A DNA stretch of 64,000 nucleotides from IMG/VR virus record IMGVR_UViG_3300049144_000095, positions 32,001-96,000 of that record; one strand, given 5' to 3'. The notes under the pieces are model-generated. The model did no database searches and was not told the origin of the DNA. It saw nothing but the letters and a program-made list of their open reading frames with translations. The translations under genes were made by a program, and so were the position numbers. This document shows, piece after piece, positions 24,458 to 38,918 of this stretch. This stretch comes from a virus (taxonomy: Duplodnaviria; Caudoviricetes). Every line of letters starts with the position of its first letter. Within the stretch, counting starts at the first letter, position 1.

Positions 24458-24943
24458 TCAGGATCCGGAAGCGGTCTTGTCGGGGACCGCGTTGGTGTCG
24501 CCCGGGGTGGGCTGGACCACCTTGACGATCGGAACGCCGTCGGTCGTCTGGCCGACGATCGTGCCGAAGGGGTCCGAGTTCGACGCGGTGGTCAGAGTGG
24601 CGCGGGTGTTGCCCGAGGCCGCCACGATGAACACGGGGGTGCCGCTGCCCTTGGTGGTGGGGTCCCAGCCGGTGACCGGGAAGGCGAAGCAGCCTTCCAG
24701 GGCGACCGAGGCCCAGCCGGGCGCGAGCGAGTTCGCCGGGTTGCGGGTCTGGGTGACCGTGGTGTCGCCGATGGTGTAGGAGACGGACTTGCCGCCGACC
24801 TCCTGCGCGAAGCCGACGATCGAGCCGATCTTCACCGGGTCACCGGCGAGGGTCGGGTCGTCGTTCTTGTGCGGGTCGTTGCCCCGCAGCGGCAGCGGGA
24901 GGGAGACCCACTGGCCGTACTTGAAGATCTCGTTCTTGGCCAT
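24458..24943 (-). CDS. Capsid decoration/cement protein (DUF2190-like)
   Basis: GDPVKIGSIVGFA...ASVALEGCFAF...GTPVFI...FGTIV; lies between scaffold and capsid genes. Confidence 0.8.
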   Translation of the reverse strand: MAKNEIFKYGQWVSLPLPLRGNDPHKNDDPTLAGDPVKIGSIVGFAQEVGGKSVSYTIGDTTVTQTRNPANSLAPGWASVALEGCFAFPVTGWDPTTKGSGTPVFIVAASGNTRATLTTASNSDPFGTIVGQTTDGVPIVKVVQPTPGDTNAVPDKTASGS

Positions 24944-26025
24944 CAGTAGGTCCCTCCCGACAGGAGGTCGCGGATCTCGTTGAGGTCGCTGTCGGACGCG
25001 GACGAGCTGCTGTAGGACGCCGACGCCGACTCGGTGAGGCCGAGGTTCGAGGACTGGTGCTCCAGGCCGGACCGCTCGGTCTCGCGCAGGAGCTTCTTCA
25101 GGTACTCGCGCTCGTGGTTGATCGACTCGTGCAGGTCCTGGTCCGGACGGTAGGACTGCGCGAGGCGGATCATCGAGGGAAGGGGGAGCTTCGCCTCAAG
25201 CAGCTCGGTGAGAACGTCACCGGTGCTCTTCGACTCCTTGAGCGCCTTGTCGGCGGCCTCGGCGCGGTCACGCAGGTACGTGATCGCCTCGGCGAGCTTC
25301 TGGTTCTCGCGAGCCTGCTTCGCGGACTCGCTCTGCGCCTCCCGGAGCGCCTGCGCCATGCGGGCCACGTCGACCGAAACCTGGTCGAGGTTTTCCTTGA
25401 CGCTCTCCTTGAGGGCGGCGACCTCGTTGCGCAGGTCACCCGACCCCAGGGTAGAGGGAATCGTGGTGGGGGCAGATCCCGCGCTGGGGACTGCTGCGGT
25501 CTGCTCTACCGGAGGGGACTCCGGCGCGGCCGACTCGGTCATAGTGACGAGCCTTCCTCCCGCTCCAGCGCGGGTGACGAGGTCAACGGAAAGGCCCTCG
25601 GAGATCTGGCGGACTATTCGCCCCGAGGGAGTCTCTTCGATCTGGCCAGCAGCTCGGATCGAGAGCCCGATGACTTTGTTGAGTTCCTGTACCAGGGACT
25701 TGGCGTTCTCGGTGAACTGGACGCGCGAGAAAAGACCTCGCCCGTCCTTTCCGTCCTCGAACGTAGCGTCGTCGAGCAGGTAGCCAGCCAGGTCCCGGAC
25801 ACTGCGCTCCGGACGCTCTTCCTCTTCGGTCTCCGTGGGGTGATCGAAGTAGATGTGCGTTCCGGCGGGAAAGGCCGTGGCCCCGTCACGGATCAGGACA
25901 TCAGCCGGGTAGTAACCGCTGCTGCCCTGGATGTCAGCTTCGATGAGGCATACGCGCCAGATACCTTTGCCGGACGACGGGTCCGGCGTAAGGGTTGCGG
26001 ATTCCCGCAGCGTCTCCTGGTTCAT
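24943..26025 (-). CDS. Capsid maturation protease-scaffold fusion
   Basis: GSSGYYPADVL...IYFDHP...SVRDLAG...GLSIRA...SVDLVTRAGAGG protease motifs followed by a coiled-coil C-terminal half. Confidence 0.88.
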   Translation of the reverse strand: MNQETLRESATLTPDPSSGKGIWRVCLIEADIQGSSGYYPADVLIRDGATAFPAGTHIYFDHPTETEEEERPERSVRDLAGYLLDDATFEDGKDGRGLFSRVQFTENAKSLVQELNKVIGLSIRAAGQIEETPSGRIVRQISEGLSVDLVTRAGAGGRLVTMTESAAPESPPVEQTAAVPSAGSAPTTIPSTLGSGDLRNEVAALKESVKENLDQVSVDVARMAQALREAQSESAKQARENQKLAEAITYLRDRAEAADKALKESKSTGDVLTELLEAKLPLPSMIRLAQSYRPDQDLHESINHEREYLKKLLRETERSGLEHQSSNLGLTESASASYSSSSASDSDLNEIRDLLSGGTY

Positions 26026-28576: not shown

Positions 28577-30946
28577 TCAGTAGGGCGCGATCATGGTCTC
28601 CGGATCCGTCATCCACTCGTCGTCGCTGTACATGCTGGCCATTTCGTCAGCCGTCTCACTGACGACGTCGCCCTGCTGGAGTCCTTCGGCGACCGGGGCT
28701 GTTGCGTACGCCACGGCGTCGGCGAGGTCGGGTGAACGTCCGTACTCGGACCGCATCGCCTCCTTTGAGGCGATCAGCAGGCGGCCGTTCTTGATCGAAT
28801 AGAAGATCATGCGCAGGTCGTCCGAGACCAGCTCGTCAGGGTCGATGATCTTGGCGGAACCGTTGTACATCTTCTGCCGAAGCTGGTCGAACCAGAAGGC
28901 TCGCGCGTTGTAGAAGCCGTACACGGAACCACCGACATTGGGGGGCGGGGCGGCCGATCCGTGCATCTCGTACACCGTGTACCAGGGCTCGGGAAGCAAC
29001 GCTGCGCGGGCGTTGAGAGTGTCGATGACACCGGCACCCAGGCCGACGCCGTCGACCCGGATCTCCACCCACGGAGCGTGCAGTTCGGCCTTCAGGCGTT
29101 CCGCGATCTCCAGAACCTTGTATGCAGAGGAAACGGTGTCGGTCCCCGACCACGAATCTTCGACTCGAACTGTTACGCCCGAGTAGGAAACGACCACCGT
29201 CTTGTCGGACCCGAACCGTGCAACGTCCACGCCCAGGCGCAGGATCGAGTACTTGGACGGGGCCGGAGGTTCGTCAATTGCATCGGCAATGAGCGACGGA
29301 GAGAAGAGGGAGGACTGGCTCTGCTCGGGGAAGCGGGCTTCGATCTTCGAGATGTAGCGAGGGTCCTTCTCGCCCCAGTCCGCAAGGCGCTCCTCGGCCC
29401 AGTCCTTGGAGATGAGCACTTCATTCAGGAGCTTCGGCACCGGCTCGTTGGTGAAGTTCGGCGTGGTCGATGCCGGAATCGAAATCCTGTTCCATAGGTG
29501 GGCGGTTCGAGGCTCCAGGAAGTTCTTGCCGAACTCGGTGTTGCGATCGTCCGGGTTTCCGATGGCCAGGATCCGGCATCCGACGTTCGTAGTGATGGCC
29601 TCGACGCCGGTCCAGATCTCCTCCGGGATGCCGCAGGCCTCATCGAGCAGGACCAGGACGTAGCGACGGTGGATGCCGTGGAAGCTGTGCCGGTCACCCT
29701 TGGCGGGCTTGCGGCCGAAGCCCACAATCTGACCGTCTGCCAGCTTCCACTCATCGGCCTGTGTCACACGCCCCGGCATGGGGTGCGGACCGCGCTGCGA
29801 GTTGGAGTGGTGCTTGCGGATCTCCTCCCAGAGAATCTTGTTCACCTGGGCGTATGTCGGTGCGGTGCTGACCACGATGGCCTGGCCGGGGGGTTTGGTG
29901 GACACCCACCAGCAGGCGAGCACGGAAGCGATCATCGAGTTGTGGGTCGGTACACCCCGCTCTCCGCACAGGTACAGGTGGTCCTCCGCGTCCACCTGGA
30001 TGCACTGAACATCGTGCTCACCGACCGGAGTTACGGAAACGATTCTCCAGCCGTCATCCCCCCAGCTCCCCTGCTGGCTGAGCAGACGCGAGAATGCCAG
30101 GGCCCTGGTGTTCGGATCCGACAGGTGCTGCGGAGCGTGAGTGCCCATCAGGGCGAGGTGGCGCAGGACCGTGCCGTACTGCCGCTCCCGCCGGTAGATG
30201 GTGTGCACGCCGATCGCGTTCATCCGCTGCCGGATCGCGGATATCTCGTCCGGCTCTTCGCTGCGGGTTTTCCACAGCAGAGCTGTGCGCCCTTCCGGAT
30301 CGAGACCGATGCGCTCCCGCAGCAGGGTCTGCGTCTCGGGGTCGGGATTCCAGGCTGTGCCGCGAGGTTCGAGGTGGGGGATCGCGCCCGGGATCACGGC
30401 GACGCCGCGCATCTGGGCGAGTTCCCGTGTCGACATGATGCGGGCGCGGTGATGCCACAAGCCGGTTTCGACCGGCACCCCCGCACGGTCGGACCGGATC
30501 TGTATGTCGGCGAGAACCTGGAGTGGAATGACCGGCCACAAGTGATCACCGGACGCGACGATCTTTTCGACCGCGCCGCCCCTCTCCAGGCGCAGCAGGT
30601 ACGCGTCTGCCTTGTGCTCCCCCGTAGTTGCCACGACTGTCACAGGGCTTCCGTCGGACCCGAGTACCTGCATCCCGGCTTTGACGTCACCCATTCGCAC
30701 AGGACCATTCGGTGTGTGTACGAGTTCATTCAGGCCAAGTGCTTTGCCCGTGCCGTGACATGACGCAACGACAGTTCTCTTGTTTCGTATAAGAGACGCA
30801 CAAATTTCCTGCTGCTTGCTCCACAGGTGCACGCCGAGAACATCCCGGGCCCAACCGGTGGGATCATTGACCCATCCGGCCTGTCGGGCCTGGTTGCGAA
30901 AGTAGGCCTCGGCGTCCGAGGCGATCCGCTCGTCCTGTGAGGACAT
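28577..30946 (-). CDS. terL: Terminase large subunit precursor containing an intein
   Basis: Walker A SCHGTGK|S split by an insertion; Walker B VLLDEACG; nuclease LGVDVARFGSDKTV; C-terminal RSPDLADA. Confidence 0.95.
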   Translation of the reverse strand: MSSQDERIASDAEAYFRNQARQAGWVNDPTGWARDVLGVHLWSKQQEICASLIRNKRTVVASCHGTGKALGLNELVHTPNGPVRMGDVKAGMQVLGSDGSPVTVVATTGEHKADAYLLRLERGGAVEKIVASGDHLWPVIPLQVLADIQIRSDRAGVPVETGLWHHRARIMSTRELAQMRGVAVIPGAIPHLEPRGTAWNPDPETQTLLRERIGLDPEGRTALLWKTRSEEPDEISAIRQRMNAIGVHTIYRRERQYGTVLRHLALMGTHAPQHLSDPNTRALAFSRLLSQQGSWGDDGWRIVSVTPVGEHDVQCIQVDAEDHLYLCGERGVPTHNSMIASVLACWWVSTKPPGQAIVVSTAPTYAQVNKILWEEIRKHHSNSQRGPHPMPGRVTQADEWKLADGQIVGFGRKPAKGDRHSFHGIHRRYVLVLLDEACGIPEEIWTGVEAITTNVGCRILAIGNPDDRNTEFGKNFLEPRTAHLWNRISIPASTTPNFTNEPVPKLLNEVLISKDWAEERLADWGEKDPRYISKIEARFPEQSQSSLFSPSLIADAIDEPPAPSKYSILRLGVDVARFGSDKTVVVSYSGVTVRVEDSWSGTDTVSSAYKVLEIAERLKAELHAPWVEIRVDGVGLGAGVIDTLNARAALLPEPWYTVYEMHGSAAPPPNVGGSVYGFYNARAFWFDQLRQKMYNGSAKIIDPDELVSDDLRMIFYSIKNGRLLIASKEAMRSEYGRSPDLADAVAYATAPVAEGLQQGDVVSETADEMASMYSDDEWMTDPETMIAPY
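29939..30742 (-). mobile_element. Intein (268 aa), Ala-start, class 3 signature
   Basis: Begins ALGLNELVHTPNG; block B ASGDHLW; block F VQCIQV; ends GVPTHN followed by a +1 Ser. Confidence 0.92.
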
Positions 30947-32973: not shown

Positions 32974-33273
32974 TCAGGCCCCGCTCTCACCGAGCGGGGC
33001 CTCCTCCGTTTCATGCTCAGGCCAGTGCCAGGTGCCGCCCGCCTTCCCCTCGGAGTACTCGCAGCCGCCGTCCATGAACGAGTGGAAGAACATGCCCGTG
33101 GGGTTCAGGGCTACCAGGCCGACCCAGTTCTCTTCGGTCGAGTCCTTCGGGTTCTCGATCACTTCGGTGACGATGGCAGCCCTGCACTTGGGGGCGTACG
33201 CCTGCGTGCCGTCTTCGCGGACGGGCGTGCCGTGGGAAACGTAGTGGACGATGCGGCCGACCGTGGGCTTCAT
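32974..33273 (-). CDS. Conserved phage hypothetical protein
   Basis: MKPTVGRIVHY...AAIVTEV...GTWHWPE pattern; an 11-bp hairpin (32976-33002) overlaps its 3' end. Confidence 0.75.
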   Translation of the reverse strand: MKPTVGRIVHYVSHGTPVREDGTQAYAPKCRAAIVTEVIENPKDSTEENWVGLVALNPTGMFFHSFMDGGCEYSEGKAGGTWHWPEHETEEAPLGESGA

Positions 33274-33830
33274 CAGATCTCCTGAACGAGAATGTCGCGG
33301 GTGTCCCAGGGGGTGTCTCGTTTGAGCAGCTTGAAGTTGGCGCCCTCTTCACGCAGGTAGGGGATGAGGACTCTCCCCTTGCGCACTTCGGCGTGGTCGG
33401 TGTTCATGTCGTCGCCCATGATCAAGCCGGGACTTGTGACCAGATCCTCGGCCAGCAGGTACTCGCGCATGGTGGCCGAACCGGAGTTGTCAGCATCGAG
33501 GTAGACAACGTCGAATCTCTCCCCATGGACCACGAGATCCTGCATGGTCCTGACGGAGTCGCCTGCATGGAAAGTGCAGAAGCCCCCCAGGCCTTCAGCG
33601 TCGACAGCGGCACGGGCTTCGCTGGGATCGAGATCGATGCCGACATACTCACTGCCAGGGTGACGGCTCAGGAGCCGGGCGAAGGCCAGGGTGGAGTGCC
33701 CGTCGCCGTCAAGGTGCTCCTGATCCAGGTTGCGAAGGACGCCGACCTCCAGAACGCGCAGCGTTTTCTTGCCCGAGCGGGCCATGAAAGCTGGCAGCTC
33801 TTCATAGATGATGTCACCGATCGTTGTCAC
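33273..33830 (-). CDS. Class I SAM-dependent methyltransferase (Methyltransf_24-like)
   Basis: VLEVG motif I, YVGIDLDP, AGDSV, FDVVYLDAD, LIMGDD. Confidence 0.85.
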   Translation of the reverse strand: MTTIGDIIYEELPAFMARSGKKTLRVLEVGVLRNLDQEHLDGDGHSTLAFARLLSRHPGSEYVGIDLDPSEARAAVDAEGLGGFCTFHAGDSVRTMQDLVVHGERFDVVYLDADNSGSATMREYLLAEDLVTSPGLIMGDDMNTDHAEVRKGRVLIPYLREEGANFKLLKRDTPWDTRDILVQEI

Positions 33831-33872
33831 CCAAAGAGGGTAACCTGGCGTCCTGAAATGAGAGAAGTTGCC

Positions 33873-34046
33873 ATGGGAAAAAGCGGAAAGTCAGCAACCG
33901 GCACCGAAGTTGCAGAAAGCCCGCTCTGCGAATGCCCGCGATGGCTGGTGCGTGCAGGGGTCAGCGACGAGTTCATCCGCAAGGTGGAGAGGCGAGCCGG
34001 GGCGCGCTGGCTGTGTACGCGCTGCCAGCGCCCCTTACTGCCGTGA
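33873..34046 (+). CDS. Small Cys-containing hypothetical protein
   Basis: MGKSGKS...CECP...CTRC; purine-rich upstream sequence. Confidence 0.45.
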   Translation: MGKSGKSATGTEVAESPLCECPRWLVRAGVSDEFIRKVERRAGARWLCTRCQRPLLP

Positions 34047-34163
34047 CGTCAGAACATCCCGGACCAGCGTCGCGCCAGGCGGTCGCGCCGGACTCTGAGC
34101 AGCCGCCCGAGGAGCAGGCCGCTCGCCAGTCCGACGCCGTAGGCCAGCCAGCAGGGCATCCCA

Positions 34164-34550
34164 TTACTCCTTTTTGGGGGCCAGTTTCGCGATGTACTGG
34201 TGGGAGTAGCCAAGGATCCCCCCGGCATCTCGCACCGTGGTCTGTGCGGTGAGCTTCCTCACCGCAGTCACCAAGGCCTTCTCGGCTTCTTCCACGGCCA
34301 GCCGCGCGCTGTCCCGGGTCCTCTCGGCTTCAGCGACGACGGCTGCAAGCTCCGGGTCGGCGAACTCCATGCGGACGAGGAACGAGGTGGCGGGCACGTC
34401 CAGCAGATTGGCTACCAGGTCGACAGCCATCTCGTGCGCCTCCCCCCAGGTGCGGCCCTGCGTGACGGCAGACCCCTTCACGGGCAGCCCTTGCACGCGA
34501 GTCACCCAGAACTTGCCTTCGCGCTCAACCGTAGCGGTGTAGATGTCCAT
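34164..34550 (-). CDS. HicB-like antitoxin with a C-terminal HTH
   Basis: YTATVEREGKFWVTRVQGLP...VTQGRTWGEAHEMAVDL is HicB-like; TVRDAGGILGYSHQYIAKL HTH. Confidence 0.75.
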   Translation of the reverse strand: MDIYTATVEREGKFWVTRVQGLPVKGSAVTQGRTWGEAHEMAVDLVANLLDVPATSFLVRMEFADPELAAVVAEAERTRDSARLAVEEAEKALVTAVRKLTAQTTVRDAGGILGYSHQYIAKLAPKKE

Positions 34551-34556
34551 GCAAAT

Positions 34557-34574
34557 TGTCTACCATGCTAGACT
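34557..34574. promoter_or_regulatory. Overlapping divergent -10 elements in a near-palindrome
   Basis: GTCTACCATGCTAGAC; minus-strand TAGACA 6 nt before the HicB ATG, plus-strand TAGACT at 34569. Confidence 0.55.
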
Positions 34575-34613
34575 CAGCTTGTCTGCTCTGGTTGACGAGG
34601 TGAGGATCAAGGA

Positions 34614-34847
34614 ATGGGAATGCGCTGGACCGACTGGACGGGTCGACTCAAAGTGGAAGTGTTGCAGGAGGGTGGGCGCTGGACCGGCAAGCGAGCCATG
34701 GAGTACCTGCACTCCATCGGCTTTCACTGCACCATCGAACGTGCGCGCGTCTGCATGAAGAGGATCGCCGACCAGGAGCCCGAGCGGGTAGTCGTTGCCG
34801 AGGGGCATCGCTGGATCTGGGACGTGCGTGGCAGCGAGGAAGCGTGA
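34614..34847 (+). CDS. Small hypothetical protein, possibly winged-helix
   Basis: AGGA RBS; 77 aa; divergent from the HicB-like gene. Confidence 0.55.
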   Translation: MGMRWTDWTGRLKVEVLQEGGRWTGKRAMEYLHSIGFHCTIERARVCMKRIADQEPERVVVAEGHRWIWDVRGSEEA

Positions 34848-34851
34848 GTCC

Positions 34852-35439
34852 TTAGTCTGTCTCCTCCAGGTCGTCGTCCACCACGGGTTGCAGCTCTATC
34901 GGTCCGGCATTGCCTCCCACCTTCACCACTGCTGCCTTGTTGCGAGCAATGGCGTCAGCGGCCATGGCCGGGAAGGTGGTGTTCCACATGATCTCGACCG
35001 CCTCCCGGGACTCCTCGGGAAGGATCTCGACGATCTTTTCCAGCATCCCCACACGAAGGACATCGATCGCCGTGGTGACGAGTTGGGTCTGAGCCTGCGT
35101 CAGGCGCACCTGCTCATCGCGCAGCCGGTCCTTCTTGAGATCCATCAGCTCGGTGATCTCGCGGATCGTGTCGATCATGTTCTTCACGTTCCGGCCCTGC
35201 GTCAGCAGGTCTCCGTCCATCACCTGCTGCCAGAGGGCGCCGATCACACGCTCCAGGCGGGCAAGCTGCAACATCCGCATCTGCACGACGGACATCGAGG
35301 TTGCCTGGCTCTCCAGGTATGACGACATGCGCTCGTGCACAACTTCGACATCCAGACCCACGGTGGCCGCGATCTGGGCAAGGGTCTTTCCCTGGGCCGC
35401 CTGGTCGACCATCACCTGGGCGAGCGAATCGTGGGCCAC
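34852..35439 (-). CDS. Terminase small subunit-like HTH protein
   Basis: GKTLAQIAATVGL HTH and LARLERVIGALWQQVMDGD...IREITELMDL pattern seen in actinophage TerS-like proteins. Confidence 0.6.
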   Translation of the reverse strand: MAHDSLAQVMVDQAAQGKTLAQIAATVGLDVEVVHERMSSYLESQATSMSVVQMRMLQLARLERVIGALWQQVMDGDLLTQGRNVKNMIDTIREITELMDLKKDRLRDEQVRLTQAQTQLVTTAIDVLRVGMLEKIVEILPEESREAVEIMWNTTFPAMAADAIARNKAAVVKVGGNAGPIELQPVVDDDLEETD

Positions 35440-35592
35440 CTACTGCTCCTCGCGAGTGTTCACCTTCCGCACGAGGCGGATGCCGTTCTGATACATCGGG
35501 TGCCGAGTGGATTCCAGCAGACGGTCGAGCCAGGCCACCGCCAGTTCGTTGTCCAGGTCCACGTGGATCGTGACCTCTTGGGTGTTCGCCAT
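35440..35592 (-). CDS. Small hypothetical protein
   Basis: 50 aa abutting the TerS-like start. Confidence 0.5.
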   Translation of the reverse strand: MANTQEVTIHVDLDNELAVAWLDRLLESTRHPMYQNGIRLVRKVNTREEQ

Positions 35593-35701
35593 GCAGTCCT
35601 GTCGCTTTCGTTGCAGCGTGGGGGCGACGCCCCAACGCAAGAGGTGGTTTCGTTGCAGCGTGGAGAGATCGCTGCAACGAAGCTCATTGCCGACCGTGCC
35701 G

Positions 35702-36598
35702 TCAGACCGAGATGCCCACCCCGGCCCACGCCTCCCGCACGGCCGGGTTCAGGCCTCCGGAGTGCCGCCAGGTTGCACGGGCCAGCTCCACGAAGGTGCT
35801 GTTCGGGCCGAGATCCTGCATGGCCCGGCGCCACATGGCCAGCGGGCGCCCCCAGCTCGGCTCCTGTGTCGCCTCGCAGAGCAGAGCGAAGGCCCGATTG
35901 GGAATGCCCGAGTTGATGTGCACTCCGCCGTTGTCGGCCCGGATCTTCTGGTAGTGGTCCATGTGGCCTGGCTGCGGGTCCTTCCCCAGCAGGGGCGAGT
36001 CATACGCCTCCCCGGGGTGCAGCATGTTCCGGACGGAGGAGACTCCGTCCACCATGATCTCTTCGCCGATGCGCCAGTCCGTCTGGTTCTGGTCGGCCCA
36101 CTGCTGCACACATACACCGAACACATCGGCCAGGTGCTCATTCAGTGCGCCTGACTGCCCGGAGTACACCAGCCCCGGGCCGAGTGAGACGAGGGCGTGC
36201 CCGAACTCGTGAGCCATGATGTCGAGCGACCGCGTGAAGTCGCCGAACACCTGGCCGTCGCCCTCGCCGAACACCAGGTAGCTGCCGTTGAAGAAGGCGT
36301 TGGCGTACCCCTCGCCGTAGTGGACGACGCCGTCGGGAAACTCGTCCACGTCGAGTAGCTGCGATATGAGACCCGCGTGACCCCTGACCCGGTCGGCTGC
36401 CTCGTCTTCGTCAGTCATCAACCTGCCCGGCAGGGCGGTCCTGTTGGAGGCCGTGTAGACGGTGATCGGACCGGCGACCGATACCGCCTTCTCGCGCGCG
36501 GCGCGCAGCTTGGTGTCCACCTTGATGCCGGACGCGAAAGAGCGGTCGTTCTCTGCGACCTTCTTCGCGATGTGAGGTGGAATGAAAGTGCAGATCAT
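35702..36598 (-). CDS. M4-family (thermolysin-like) zinc metalloprotease, protealysin type
   Basis: NAFFNGS, AHEFGH (HExxH), GALNEHLADVFG and GGVHINSGIPN; short propeptide CTFIPPHI; no signal peptide. Confidence 0.92.
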   Translation of the reverse strand: MICTFIPPHIAKKVAENDRSFASGIKVDTKLRAAREKAVSVAGPITVYTASNRTALPGRLMTDEDEAADRVRGHAGLISQLLDVDEFPDGVVHYGEGYANAFFNGSYLVFGEGDGQVFGDFTRSLDIMAHEFGHALVSLGPGLVYSGQSGALNEHLADVFGVCVQQWADQNQTDWRIGEEIMVDGVSSVRNMLHPGEAYDSPLLGKDPQPGHMDHYQKIRADNGGVHINSGIPNRAFALLCEATQEPSWGRPLAMWRRAMQDLGPNSTFVELARATWRHSGGLNPAVREAWAGVGISV

Positions 36599-36692
36599 GC
36601 TGCGAAGTCTACGGCGCAAGAAGGTAAGCAAAGCGCCTGCAACCTGTATATCTTTCTGAAGCCCGTTCCTGTCTTCGTGAAAGCAGAATTGC

Positions 36693-36938
36693 ATGACCTT
36701 CACCCGGACTCACGTCCATGTTTCCTTTGCTGACCCGTACTTGCGCTGCAACCGGTGCGGAAGGCGGGTGGAGGGGTGGCACGATCCGGACCGCTGCGGG
36801 TGCGAGGGTGAGGCGGTCAACGAGCCGTGCGGCTGCCGTTTCGACGCTCGGAGCGTGTGCCCTTCCTGGTCGCCCGTGGACGGCTGCACCTGCCCTCCTG
36901 ATGCGCACGAGGTCCCCTCGGGTTCCAGGAAAGACTGA
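36693..36938 (+). CDS. Cys-rich hypothetical protein
   Basis: CNRC...CGC...CGC...CPSW...CTC. Confidence 0.55.
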   Translation: MTFTRTHVHVSFADPYLRCNRCGRRVEGWHDPDRCGCEGEAVNEPCGCRFDARSVCPSWSPVDGCTCPPDAHEVPSGSRKD

Positions 36939-36969
36939 GACCCCCGGCGGCGGATCCGGGGGTCTCAGT
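36934..36969. terminator. 14-bp perfect inverted repeat between convergent genes
   Basis: ACTGAGACCCCCGG-CGGCGGAT-CCGGGGGTCTCAGT. Confidence 0.7.
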
Positions 36970-37068
36970 GAAAGCAGACATCTCTCAGGCGCCCGAGGGC
37001 TGATGCCTGAGAGCCGACTACGCACGCCAGACTAGCAGACCAACTTGCCGACCCCGTGCTTGATTTCG

Positions 37069-38175
37069 CTACACAGTGAACTGTTCGACAAGGTCTGCGT
37101 AGACGTCAACAGCCGACTCGGCATGCTTGGCTCGCCTGGCCTCCATGTTCCTCATCTGGACGTACCTAAGTGTTGTCTCGATGCGGGCGTGATCGGCGTA
37201 GTCCTGGATCTCCTCCAGATCAACCCCCTCGTCGTGCATGTGAGTGAGTCGCGCTTTCCGGAGTACGTGCGGAGTCACGTCGCGGCCAGGCAGCACACCC
37301 GCTTCTTTGCCGAGCCTGGTGAGCAGCCGGTCGATTGCGTGCCGGTCCATCGGCTTGCTGTCGCCATCCACCAGGAGGTGACCCTCGGTACGTCCGTCGA
37401 GGGCTACCAGGAAGAGGTCCCGCAGCCTGTCAGGGATGGGCCACAAGCGCCTCTTGCTGCGCTTGCGGGTCAGGGCCAGGTACCACTTGCCGTCTACGAT
37501 CCGACGCTGAGAGATGGTGGCGGTGCAGCACTCGGAAACCCGTCCCGCCACTGTGTAGATCAAGGCCGGAACGACCGCCTCGCGGGCAGTCTTGGCGGCC
37601 TTGATGACGCGCCGGTACTCGTGCACCTCCAGCAGCGGGGTGGCCGTTGTCTCGTCGAACGGATCAACCTTCGGCCGGTCGTACTTGGTAACCGGGGATA
37701 CGAGCCTGTCGTCCTTCAGCTTCCAGGCGGCGTACCGCGTGAAGGAAGTTAGTGCGGACAGGCGACGGTTTATCGTCCGAGGGGATGCGTTCTTCGCCTT
37801 CTGTGCCTTGGTCCATGTCTCGATCATTTCCATGGAGATGCAGCCCAGGAAAAAGCGTTCGTGACCGCCGAGTTCCCGGGCAACCCCAGCCCACAGTCTG
37901 ATGTCGTCGGCGTAGTGCCGTTTTGACTCCAGGGCGGGCACTGCATCGGAGCCGAGCCAGGACATGACGAGCAGGAAGGTCTCGCGCTCACACAGCTCGG
38001 CCAGCCACTCGATCCGGTGCTTGCGTGGACCGAGCCTCCGTGTCTTCGGATCGCGCGGAGCGACTGTGCCAAGCACTTGGAACAGCCACTCTGCGGCATC
38101 CTCGGCGAGACCATTCCCTGCAACCAGCTCTGCATGGTGGACAGTTGCCAGGTCGCCGACTTTTGCTGTTGGCAC
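37069..38175 (-). CDS. Tyrosine recombinase (XerC/D-like or integrase)
   Basis: Catalytic R (AGRVSE), K (TRKRSK), HxxR (PHVLRK), H (ADHA) and Y (TTLRY) all present. Confidence 0.92.
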   Translation of the reverse strand: MPTAKVGDLATVHHAELVAGNGLAEDAAEWLFQVLGTVAPRDPKTRRLGPRKHRIEWLAELCERETFLLVMSWLGSDAVPALESKRHYADDIRLWAGVARELGGHERFFLGCISMEMIETWTKAQKAKNASPRTINRRLSALTSFTRYAAWKLKDDRLVSPVTKYDRPKVDPFDETTATPLLEVHEYRRVIKAAKTAREAVVPALIYTVAGRVSECCTATISQRRIVDGKWYLALTRKRSKRRLWPIPDRLRDLFLVALDGRTEGHLLVDGDSKPMDRHAIDRLLTRLGKEAGVLPGRDVTPHVLRKARLTHMHDEGVDLEEIQDYADHARIETTLRYVQMRNMEARRAKHAESAVDVYADLVEQFTV

Positions 38176-38603: not shown

Positions 38604-38918
38604 GTGACGCTTCCACGTATGACCCAGGCAACCGTCTCGATCCTGGAAGCACTCCTCCAGGCCGAGCGTGACCATCCGGCAGAATCCCTCTGGGGCCTGA
38701 GGGTCTGCCAGGTAACCGAGCTGATGCCCGGCACGGTCTATCCGGTGCTCATCCGACTGACCCGGCTCGGCTGGGTAGAGGTGAGCGAGGAGACCGGAGT
38801 GCACCCCGGTCGCCCGCCACGCAAGTACTACCGGTTCACGGACGAGGGCCGCATTCTCGCCGAAGCCTCACTAGAGCACCGAAGGGTGCAGAGGGCGCGA
38901 ATCGCAGGCAGGGGCTAA
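38604..38918 (+). CDS. PadR-like transcriptional regulator
   Basis: WGLRVCQVTELMPGTVYPVLIRLTRLGWVE...RPPRKYYRFTDEG. Confidence 0.88.
   Translation: MTLPRMTQATVSILEALLQAERDHPAESLWGLRVCQVTELMPGTVYPVLIRLTRLGWVEVSEETGVHPGRPPRKYYRFTDEGRILAEASLEHRRVQRARIAGRG

Follow-up and report, generated by a model that had tools for sequence, protein, structure and literature searches.

A compact protealysin-like M4 metalloprotease, without an emfourin gene, in a probable jumbo phage of Streptomyces

A 64,000-nucleotide stretch of viral DNA, comprising bases 32001-96000 of the 251,159-bp virus record IMGVR_UViG_3300049144_000095 (the window, with positions counted from its first base), contains a gene for a compact, protealysin-like zinc metalloprotease of the M4 family. 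As judged from alignments, a tree and a predicted structure, the product falls within a compact subclade of protealysin-like proteases carried by phages; it has a complete thermolysin-type active site and a short propeptide, and we found no gene for emfourin, the inhibitor usually co-encoded with such enzymes, in the phage genome. Protealysin-like proteases are common in bacteria, and their natural role is debated. An earlier note, made from the DNA letters alone, had described the gene as an unusual phage cargo encoded without its inhibitor and had named cleavage of host defence proteins, processing of virion proteins and competition after release at lysis as possible roles.

The phage gene encodes a protealysin-like precursor

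The protease open reading frame (ORF) specifies 298 amino acids (aa). It remains open from its stop at 35702 back to an in-frame GTG at 36703, which would give a 333-aa product; we rejected this longer form, given the MxCxFIPPH start common to all homologues, and set the start at 36598 because the homologues all begin at the Met of MICTFIPPHI. Two Pfam profiles matched above their gathering scores, Peptidase_M4_C (PF02868; 4.7e-34, 118 bits) and Peptidase_M4 (PF01447; 9.7e-14, 52.5 bits), and because the latter match covers just profile positions 98-144, the N-terminal lobe appears to be reduced. Pairwise ratios of nonsynonymous to synonymous substitution rates (dN/dS) between the phage protease and nine relatives were 0.10-0.28, and the gene is evidently under purifying selection.

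All zinc ligands of the M4 family (HExxH and a downstream Glu in an NExxSD-type motif) are present, as listed with the other features in Table 1, and D222 lies just upstream of GGVHINSG. Residues N100, A101, Y145, D158, R190, D222, and H227 correspond to thermolysin N112, A113, Y157, D170, R203, D226, and H231 (thermolysin numbering is that of the phage protease +12 up to residue 158, and R190/R203 is +13 past a later gap), and the thermolysin-equivalent catalytic and substrate residues are invariant or nearly so across an alignment of 81 sequences. The best sequence match among solved structures was the protealysin precursor 2VQX (E 2.7e-53, compared to 2.3e-35 for thermolysin). We modelled the protein with AlphaFold2 (AF2) from the 81-row alignment, obtaining a mean predicted local distance difference test (pLDDT) score of 91.7 and superseding an earlier model from a 12-row alignment (pLDDT 69.7). 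The best Foldseek match of the predicted model was again 2vqx (TMq 0.88, with the propeptide included in the superposition), and its predicted fold is the two-lobed thermolysin fold (TMq 0.76 to thermolysin 1kei).

In the modelled N-terminus, helices at residues 8-17 and 19-33 and a low-confidence linker at 35-38 precede the catalytic domain, which places the propeptide at residues 1 to ~38. Propeptides of protealysin-like proteases are usually about 50 aa long and share a PPL motif (PMC6778150). Propeptide residues P7, P8, R32, and R35 are nearly invariant in the 81 sequences, and IPPHI lines up with IPPHIL and VPPYLM in canonical protealysin-like proteases and also aligns to their CxxIPPH/Y motifs; Pro-Pro is followed in the phage form by His and then Ile or Met, not Leu. 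The profile PLN_propep (PF16485), which canonical members do carry, gave no Pfam match to the phage protease even at E<=10, and the FTP and PepSY prodomains gave none either. By its alignment, the phage propeptide is a shortened, divergent variant. No signal peptide or membrane segment was detected, with a maximum Kyte-Doolittle 15-residue mean of 0.91 in the first 60 residues. With 2VQX the top match by both sequence and predicted fold, the protealysin-like M4 identity proposed in the earlier note is borne out; the active-site motifs that it had listed were found at exact coordinates with every catalytic residue in place, and its reading of a short CTFIPPHI propeptide without a signal peptide agrees with an N-terminus that has no hydrophobic segment. 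We regard it as very probable that the gene encodes an active protealysin-like protease.

The phage protein shares with protealysin of Serratia proteamaculans (2VQX) the thermolysin-type catalytic set, a short Pro-Pro propeptide, and the lack of a signal peptide. It differs from protealysin in being phage-encoded, with no emfourin gene adjoining or elsewhere in the genome, and in its N-terminus: protealysin first sheds seven N-terminal residues just upstream of the Pro-Pro motif (PMC6778150), whereas the phage protein starts three residues before this motif and is without the heptapeptide. Compared to canonical protealysin-like members, the phage form is ~45 residues shorter, through eight small deletions.

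Compact phage proteases branch apart from emfourin-fused cellular proteases

A database search returned relatives in three tiers. The first comprised about 55 clusters of 289-306 aa and 64-87% identity, many of them on 100-190-kb contigs, and the second comprised proteins of 301-370 aa and 42-53% identity. The third tier, from ~44% identity down, consisted of actinobacterial proteins of 425-500 aa with a C-terminally fused emfourin domain (PF20242), from the genera Nocardioides, Marmoricola, and Myceligenerans, together with canonical protealysin-like proteases of ~350 aa with PLN_propep. Some of the emfourin-fused single proteins (P0079-P0119) are named just 'protealysin inhibitor emfourin' in the database. 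The nearest cellular relatives of the phage protease are actinobacterial protealysin-like proteases of 38-44% identity, which have the same motifs, come from the host phylum, and carry emfourin either as a downstream gene (the Streptomyces operon described below) or as a C-terminal domain (Nocardioides and relatives).

The phylogeny that had been suggested as a check separates the two groups. In a maximum-likelihood tree of 108 sequences, the compact proteins occupy one 35-row branch with a Shimodaira–Hasegawa-like approximate likelihood-ratio (SH-aLRT) support of 99, and all 19 emfourin-fused proteins fall across this branch from them; the compact proteins form a clade only if the root of the tree lies outside the 35-row branch. 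Given this topology, the phage protease is best placed in a compact, phage-borne subclade of protealysin-like proteases, apart from the emfourin-fused cellular enzymes. The deeper compact lineages that we looked up lie on a 272-kb contig of a Streptomyces assembly and on contigs of 142 kb, 181 kb, and 9.6 kb; in all of them the protease gene sits amid many small unannotated genes and an Amidase_2 endolysin gene, a setting that is phage-like in gene content. Lineages with as little as 42-50% identity still carry the protease gene.

The BFVD database contains one viral structure of this fold, a member of the same clade that is 77% identical to the phage protease. No PHROGs v4 family was matched by the phage protease, and PADLOC gave no match for the protease or six neighbours. 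The description of the gene as unusual viral cargo stands, given the one viral structure of this fold in BFVD, with the correction that the gene is not a one-off but is conserved across a phage clade, in which it has already been annotated.

Emfourin genes in phage and host genomes

We searched for emfourin (PF20242) in six phage genomes, namely the present record and five relatives. The 251-kb record contained no match at E<=1, and none exceeded the family cut-off in Kradal, Frankenweenie, or three related viral contigs of 189-260 kb; the single sub-threshold match among these five relatives has internal stops. A co-encoded emfourin, which is a usual but not strictly defining trait of protealysin-like proteases, was not found here, and the neighbour of the protease gene is a 50-aa ORF rather than a gene of emfourin size, as had been noted from the sequence.

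Emfourin did exceed the Pfam cut-off in 57 of 61 sampled Streptomyces genomes. In the assembly of Streptomyces cucumeris NEAU-Y11, a chromosomal operon encodes a 372-aa canonical protealysin-like protease (L019:337-1455), 38% identical to the phage protease, and, after a gap of 27 nt, an 88-aa emfourin (L019:1483-1749). Because emfourins are encoded so widely in Streptomyces, the words 'without its inhibitor' in the earlier note hold for the phage genome alone and do not extend to the host; on gene content, emfourin is missing from the phage genome, not from the infected cell. Emfourin reportedly inhibits both protealysin and thermolysin, and a comparison has been drawn between the protease-emfourin pair and toxin-immunity modules (PMC9505478). 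Given this reported action on both enzymes, cross-inhibition of the phage protease by host emfourin is plausible.

The protease gene lies in a phage genome related to cluster BM isolates

The 251-kb record has ends that share a 156-bp overlap (99.4% identity) and a completeness estimate of 100, and it probably represents a complete soil Streptomyces jumbo phage related to the cluster BM isolates. Its large terminase (28577-30946) shares 77-79% identity with the terminases of seven Streptomyces phage isolates of this cluster, Satis, Kradal, Quantum, EhyElimayoE, JustBecause, Kela, and Frankenweenie. Cluster BM phages have prolate heads, genomes of 184-200 kb, ~1-kb terminal repeats, and no integrase (PMC6687918, PMC10652959). 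Positions 33271-36616 are ~78% identical in nucleotide sequence to a BM module in which a metalloprotease gene, small ORFs, a 'DNA binding protein' gene, and an O-methyltransferase gene precede the terminase gene. We rejected the possibility that the region is flanking host DNA, which the earlier note had named as a potential refutation, because the two ends of the record overlap and lytic isolates show synteny across the whole module; the gene is phage-encoded.

All seven isolates have orthologues of the protease in GenBank, 73-79% identical and all filed as 'metalloprotease' (Satis gp9, Kradal gp9, JustBecause gp8, Kela gp8, Frankenweenie gp14, and others). These orthologues are of equal length, begin at the same start, and share the position ahead of genes for a helix-turn-helix (HTH) protein, an O-methyltransferase, and the terminase; their records name no protease subfamily. 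The Kradal orthologue (L001:7309-8205, gp9) bears the GenBank note 'SprT protease', which conflicts with the M4 identity and has no Pfam support.

Unlike the BM isolates, the present phage has a larger genome (251 kb compared to 184-200 kb) and a tyrosine integrase, whose best phage matches are Gordonia integrases of only ~30% identity, and by this gene content it may be a temperate jumbo phage. Scaffold14 of the NEAU-Y11 assembly (L017, L021; 185,382 bp) is a BM-like phage with a protease 79% and a terminase 81% identical to those described here, and the presence of a whole-phage-sized scaffold in this assembly hints that the strain harbours the phage in a carrier state or as an extrachromosomal prophage. 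A search of sequencing runs matched five soil-metagenome DNA runs, and no RNA run was listed.

Candidate promoter and neighbouring genes

The 20 nt before the protease ATG are CGTAGACTTCGCAGC, and no Shine-Dalgarno sequence precedes this ATG. The -10-like hexamer TAGACT (TATGCT in one locus) stands 7 nt from the ATG in 9 of 9 aligned close loci, in which the DNA further upstream is unalignable and derives from different genes. The NEAU-Y11 phage scaffold (L017) also has TAGACT; of two deeper lineages, L014 (50% identity) has TAGGAT with a 6-nt spacer, and the motif is weak in L013. Actinobacterial promoters have the -10 consensus TANNNT, and leaderless mRNAs are frequent in this phylum. Conservation of TAGACT suggests a host-type promoter that would produce a leaderless transcript. 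Across the genome, the pattern TAG[AG]NT-N6-8-ATG/GTG occurs in about the number expected by chance from a rough base-composition estimate. A sigma-70 consensus scan of 34700-37200 returned no promoter, under an E. coli-type rule that TAGACT does not fit.

The HTH protein encoded downstream of the protease is 187-200 aa long and 53-67% identical in every sublineage examined, which makes it better conserved than the protease, and its core DLKKDRLRDEQ.RLTQAQT is invariant. In L023, the two genes overlap by 8 nt. This protein is annotated as 'DNA binding protein' in BM phages, and our searches gave only weak hints of an HTH and of sigma-70 region 4: no significant match was found in Pfam, NCBIfam, PADLOC, or PDB sequence profiles, PHROGs gave one weak 'RNase E' match, and look-alikes in a protein atlas were viral proteins annotated as hypothetical, a few of them containing an HTH_23 or sigma-70 region 4 domain. 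It could be a small terminase.

Several BM phages have PnuC-like (nicotinamide mononucleotide transporter) fragments of 87-93 aa between the protease and HTH genes (L001:6669-6938, L002:3641-3904), far below the 175 positions of the transporter profile. An O-methyltransferase is also encoded in the window. The DNA upstream of the protease gene, in the region of the 81-aa ORF, is also found in L003 and L004; BM isolates have a different gene there. In two deeper lineages, Acb2_Tad1_hairpin (PF24729) genes directly follow the protease-HTH pair (L022:8826-9056, L023:2585-2800) and are followed by an Amidase_2/LysM endolysin gene. Acb2/Tad1-hairpin proteins are a known family of anti-defence sponges; no Acb2_Tad1_hairpin match was found in the present phage genome.

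Table 1. Features of the protease gene and its surroundings. Positions are those of the window, except where a locus label precedes them.
Feature	Position	Strand	Evidence or remark
Compact protealysin-like M4 zinc metalloprotease precursor, 298 aa	35702..36598	(-)	ORF, Pfam M4 and M4_C, 2vqx match, AF2 model, dN/dS
Propeptide, residues 1 to ~38	36485..36598	(-)	AF2 model and alignment; cleavage point inferred
CTFIPPHI, PPL-type motif, residues 3-10	36569-36592	(-)	exact-coordinate check
HEFGH, zinc ligands H130 and H134, catalytic E131	36197..36211	(-)	thermolysin H142, H146, E143
NEHLAD, third zinc ligand E154, and D158	36125..36142	(-)	thermolysin E166, D170
GGVHINSG, transition-state His H227	35906..35929	(-)	thermolysin H231
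TAGACT, -10-like hexamer, candidate promoter of a leaderless mRNA	36606..36611	(-)	7 nt upstream of ATG
Conserved 50-aa ORF, invariant W21, H31, P32, Y34	35440..35592	(-)	homologues in most close relatives
Conserved 195-aa protein with N-terminal HTH-like region	34852..35439	(-)	constant downstream neighbour of protease
Homologues of the HTH protein	L013:9186-9767, L014:9046-9609, L022:8233-8832, L023:1996-2598
77-aa ORF beside HicB-like gene	34614-34847	(+)	opposite strand to HicB-like gene
HicB-like antitoxin homologue	34164-34550	(-)	phrog_8245, 2.3e-14; no recognised HicA adjoining
Head-maturation protease	24943-26025		phrog_15531, 2e-39; between portal and capsid genes
81-aa Cys-rich ORF (11 Cys)	36693-36938	(+)	divergent from protease gene
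Tyrosine integrase	37069-38175	(-)	Phage_integrase 1.1e-21; 470 bp upstream of protease
PadR-type regulator	38604-38918	(+)	near integrase

Possible roles of the protease

We favor a reading in which the phage makes a working protealysin-like zinc endopeptidase in the Streptomyces cytoplasm, and we give this explanation as a whole, including a host-directed role within the cell, a probability of roughly 0.4. Host RNA polymerase would transcribe the gene as a leaderless mRNA from the TAGACT -10 element, and the ~38-aa propeptide would help the precursor to fold before being autoprocessed away, leaving a broad endopeptidase of the thermolysin type. Its targets would be host proteins inside the infected hypha, cleaved in the course of takeover or counter-defence. 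A parallel would be protealysin in the absence of emfourin, reported to cut FtsZ and RecA and to reduce the survival of E. coli under UV (PMC9505478). A phage would have no need to spare the cell and so could do without the inhibitor, and host emfourin would be out-titrated or evaded, or would act as a timer. We favor action within the hypha because of the apparently leaderless, host-type start, the neighbouring genes, and the precedent of FtsZ and RecA cleavage; those neighbours that seem to be of a host-interaction kind are the HicB-like and methyltransferase genes and, in other lineages, the Acb2/Tad1-like genes.

Several observations weigh against this reading. Protealysin reportedly builds up in cells in an inactive precursor form, with activation following lysis (PMC6778150), which favors the lysis-dependent alternative below, and the emfourin that most sampled Streptomyces genomes encode, being an inhibitor of thermolysin as well (PMC9505478), might keep the mature phage protease inactive inside the cell. 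The protease gene also heads a transcription unit that runs into packaging and structural genes, and it could be expressed late. The -10 motif is backed by conservation, not by statistics, and the arguments from gene neighbourhood are weak, with the Acb2/Tad1-like gene absent from the present genome. A bolder form of the host-directed reading, which we find rather unlikely as a whole, is that the compact subclade consists of host-takeover or counter-defence proteases that shed the inhibitor, were remodelled by the eight deletions and the shortened propeptide to escape host emfourin, and cleave division, recombination, or immunity factors early in infection; in a variant, the emfourin pool would serve as a stoichiometric timer.

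An alternative that we consider possible, if somewhat unlikely, is a lysis-activated role outside the cell. The precursor would be held inactive by its propeptide and by host emfourin until the phage lyses the hypha, and the enzyme would then digest debris, surface or receptor proteins, or neighbouring cells, aiding the escape of progeny from the mycelium or freeing nutrients. Protealysin is reported to be processed once cells have lysed (PMC6778150), selection has preserved the propeptide and its PPL motif, emfourin is near-universal in Streptomyces hosts, and a protein with no export signal could leave the cell by lysis alone. Retention of the propeptide may, however, serve folding alone, no secretion-adapted features are in evidence, and the HTH, methyltransferase, and HicB-like neighbours look intracellular; a benefit that arises after lysis also need not be heritable for the phage.

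We judge it improbable that the protease acts on the phage's own proteins, foremost on the ~195-aa HTH protein or on a virion protein other than the capsid. Adjacency of the protease and HTH genes in every sublineage examined, the conservation of the HTH protein, the gene overlap in L023, and the position of the pair upstream of the packaging genes are consistent with a functional link, in a layout like that of ImmA/IrrE (M78) proteases, where a zinc protease gene lies beside an HTH regulator gene in a mobile element and which supplies the ImmA/ImmR logic of this alternative. The likeness is one of layout only: the phage protease has no sequence relation to the M78 proteases and is of another family and fold, its HTH partner is not recognisably a repressor, and adjacency may mean shared transcription alone. 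Cluster BM isolates have neither repressor nor integrase (PMC10652959). Virion processing, one of the roles proposed in the earlier note, appears less likely because a dedicated head-maturation protease fills the slot between the portal and capsid genes. The M4 gene lies at the wrong position for a prohead protease and has no PHROG match.

The 50-aa ORF, which had been put forward for testing as an inhibitor, very improbably encodes a novel protease inhibitor unrelated to emfourin, or a novel immunity partner, even though most close relatives conserve this small ORF on the protease strand, downstream of the protease gene. A gap of 109 nt parts it from the protease stop, yet its stop codon adjoins the GTG at which the HTH gene begins (CAGTAGGTG); in Frankenweenie-like phages, a PnuC-like membrane fragment stands between it and the protease gene; and tblastn did not find it in the Kradal group or in L013-L015, deeper lineages in which the protease persists. 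These three features of gene layout make it, on comparative grounds, a poor inhibitor candidate. Its product has no Pfam, PHROG, NCBIfam, or PADLOC match and, as an emfourin, would be short (50 aa compared to the usual ~90-110 aa) and gives no PF20242 match. A complex prediction for the mature protease (residues 38-298, 81 rows) with the 50-aa protein (7 rows) gave a score of 0.01 (mark 0.32), which speaks neither for nor against binding. Finally, the idea that the gene is a decaying or catalytically dead passenger is highly improbable, given the catalytic residues kept across all 81 sequences, the low dN/dS, and the retention of the gene in its most distant lineages.

Discussion

The protease family, its fold, its inhibitor, and the annotation of the orthologues, without a subfamily, were known already. 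What appears to be new is a compact, phage-borne subclade that lacks the inhibitor and has inhibitor-fused proteins as its closest relatives among cellular enzymes, together with the fixed pairing of the protease with an HTH protein and the contrast with emfourin-bearing hosts. Our literature search found no paper on this phage protease gene, and the BM genome announcements (PMC6687918, PMC10652959) do not mention it. The finding is modest, in that the family is known, the orthologues are annotated, and the functional role is inferred only. The thermolysin fold is nevertheless very rare among viral proteins, with a single BFVD cluster. The phages amount to a natural experiment, in which a protease has been kept under selection and its inhibitor dropped while nearly all of the hosts are emfourin-makers. 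This system lets one ask what a protealysin-like protease does to a bacterial cell and whether emfourin protects that cell, a question that the cultured cluster BM phages, which grow on S. lividans, make directly testable.

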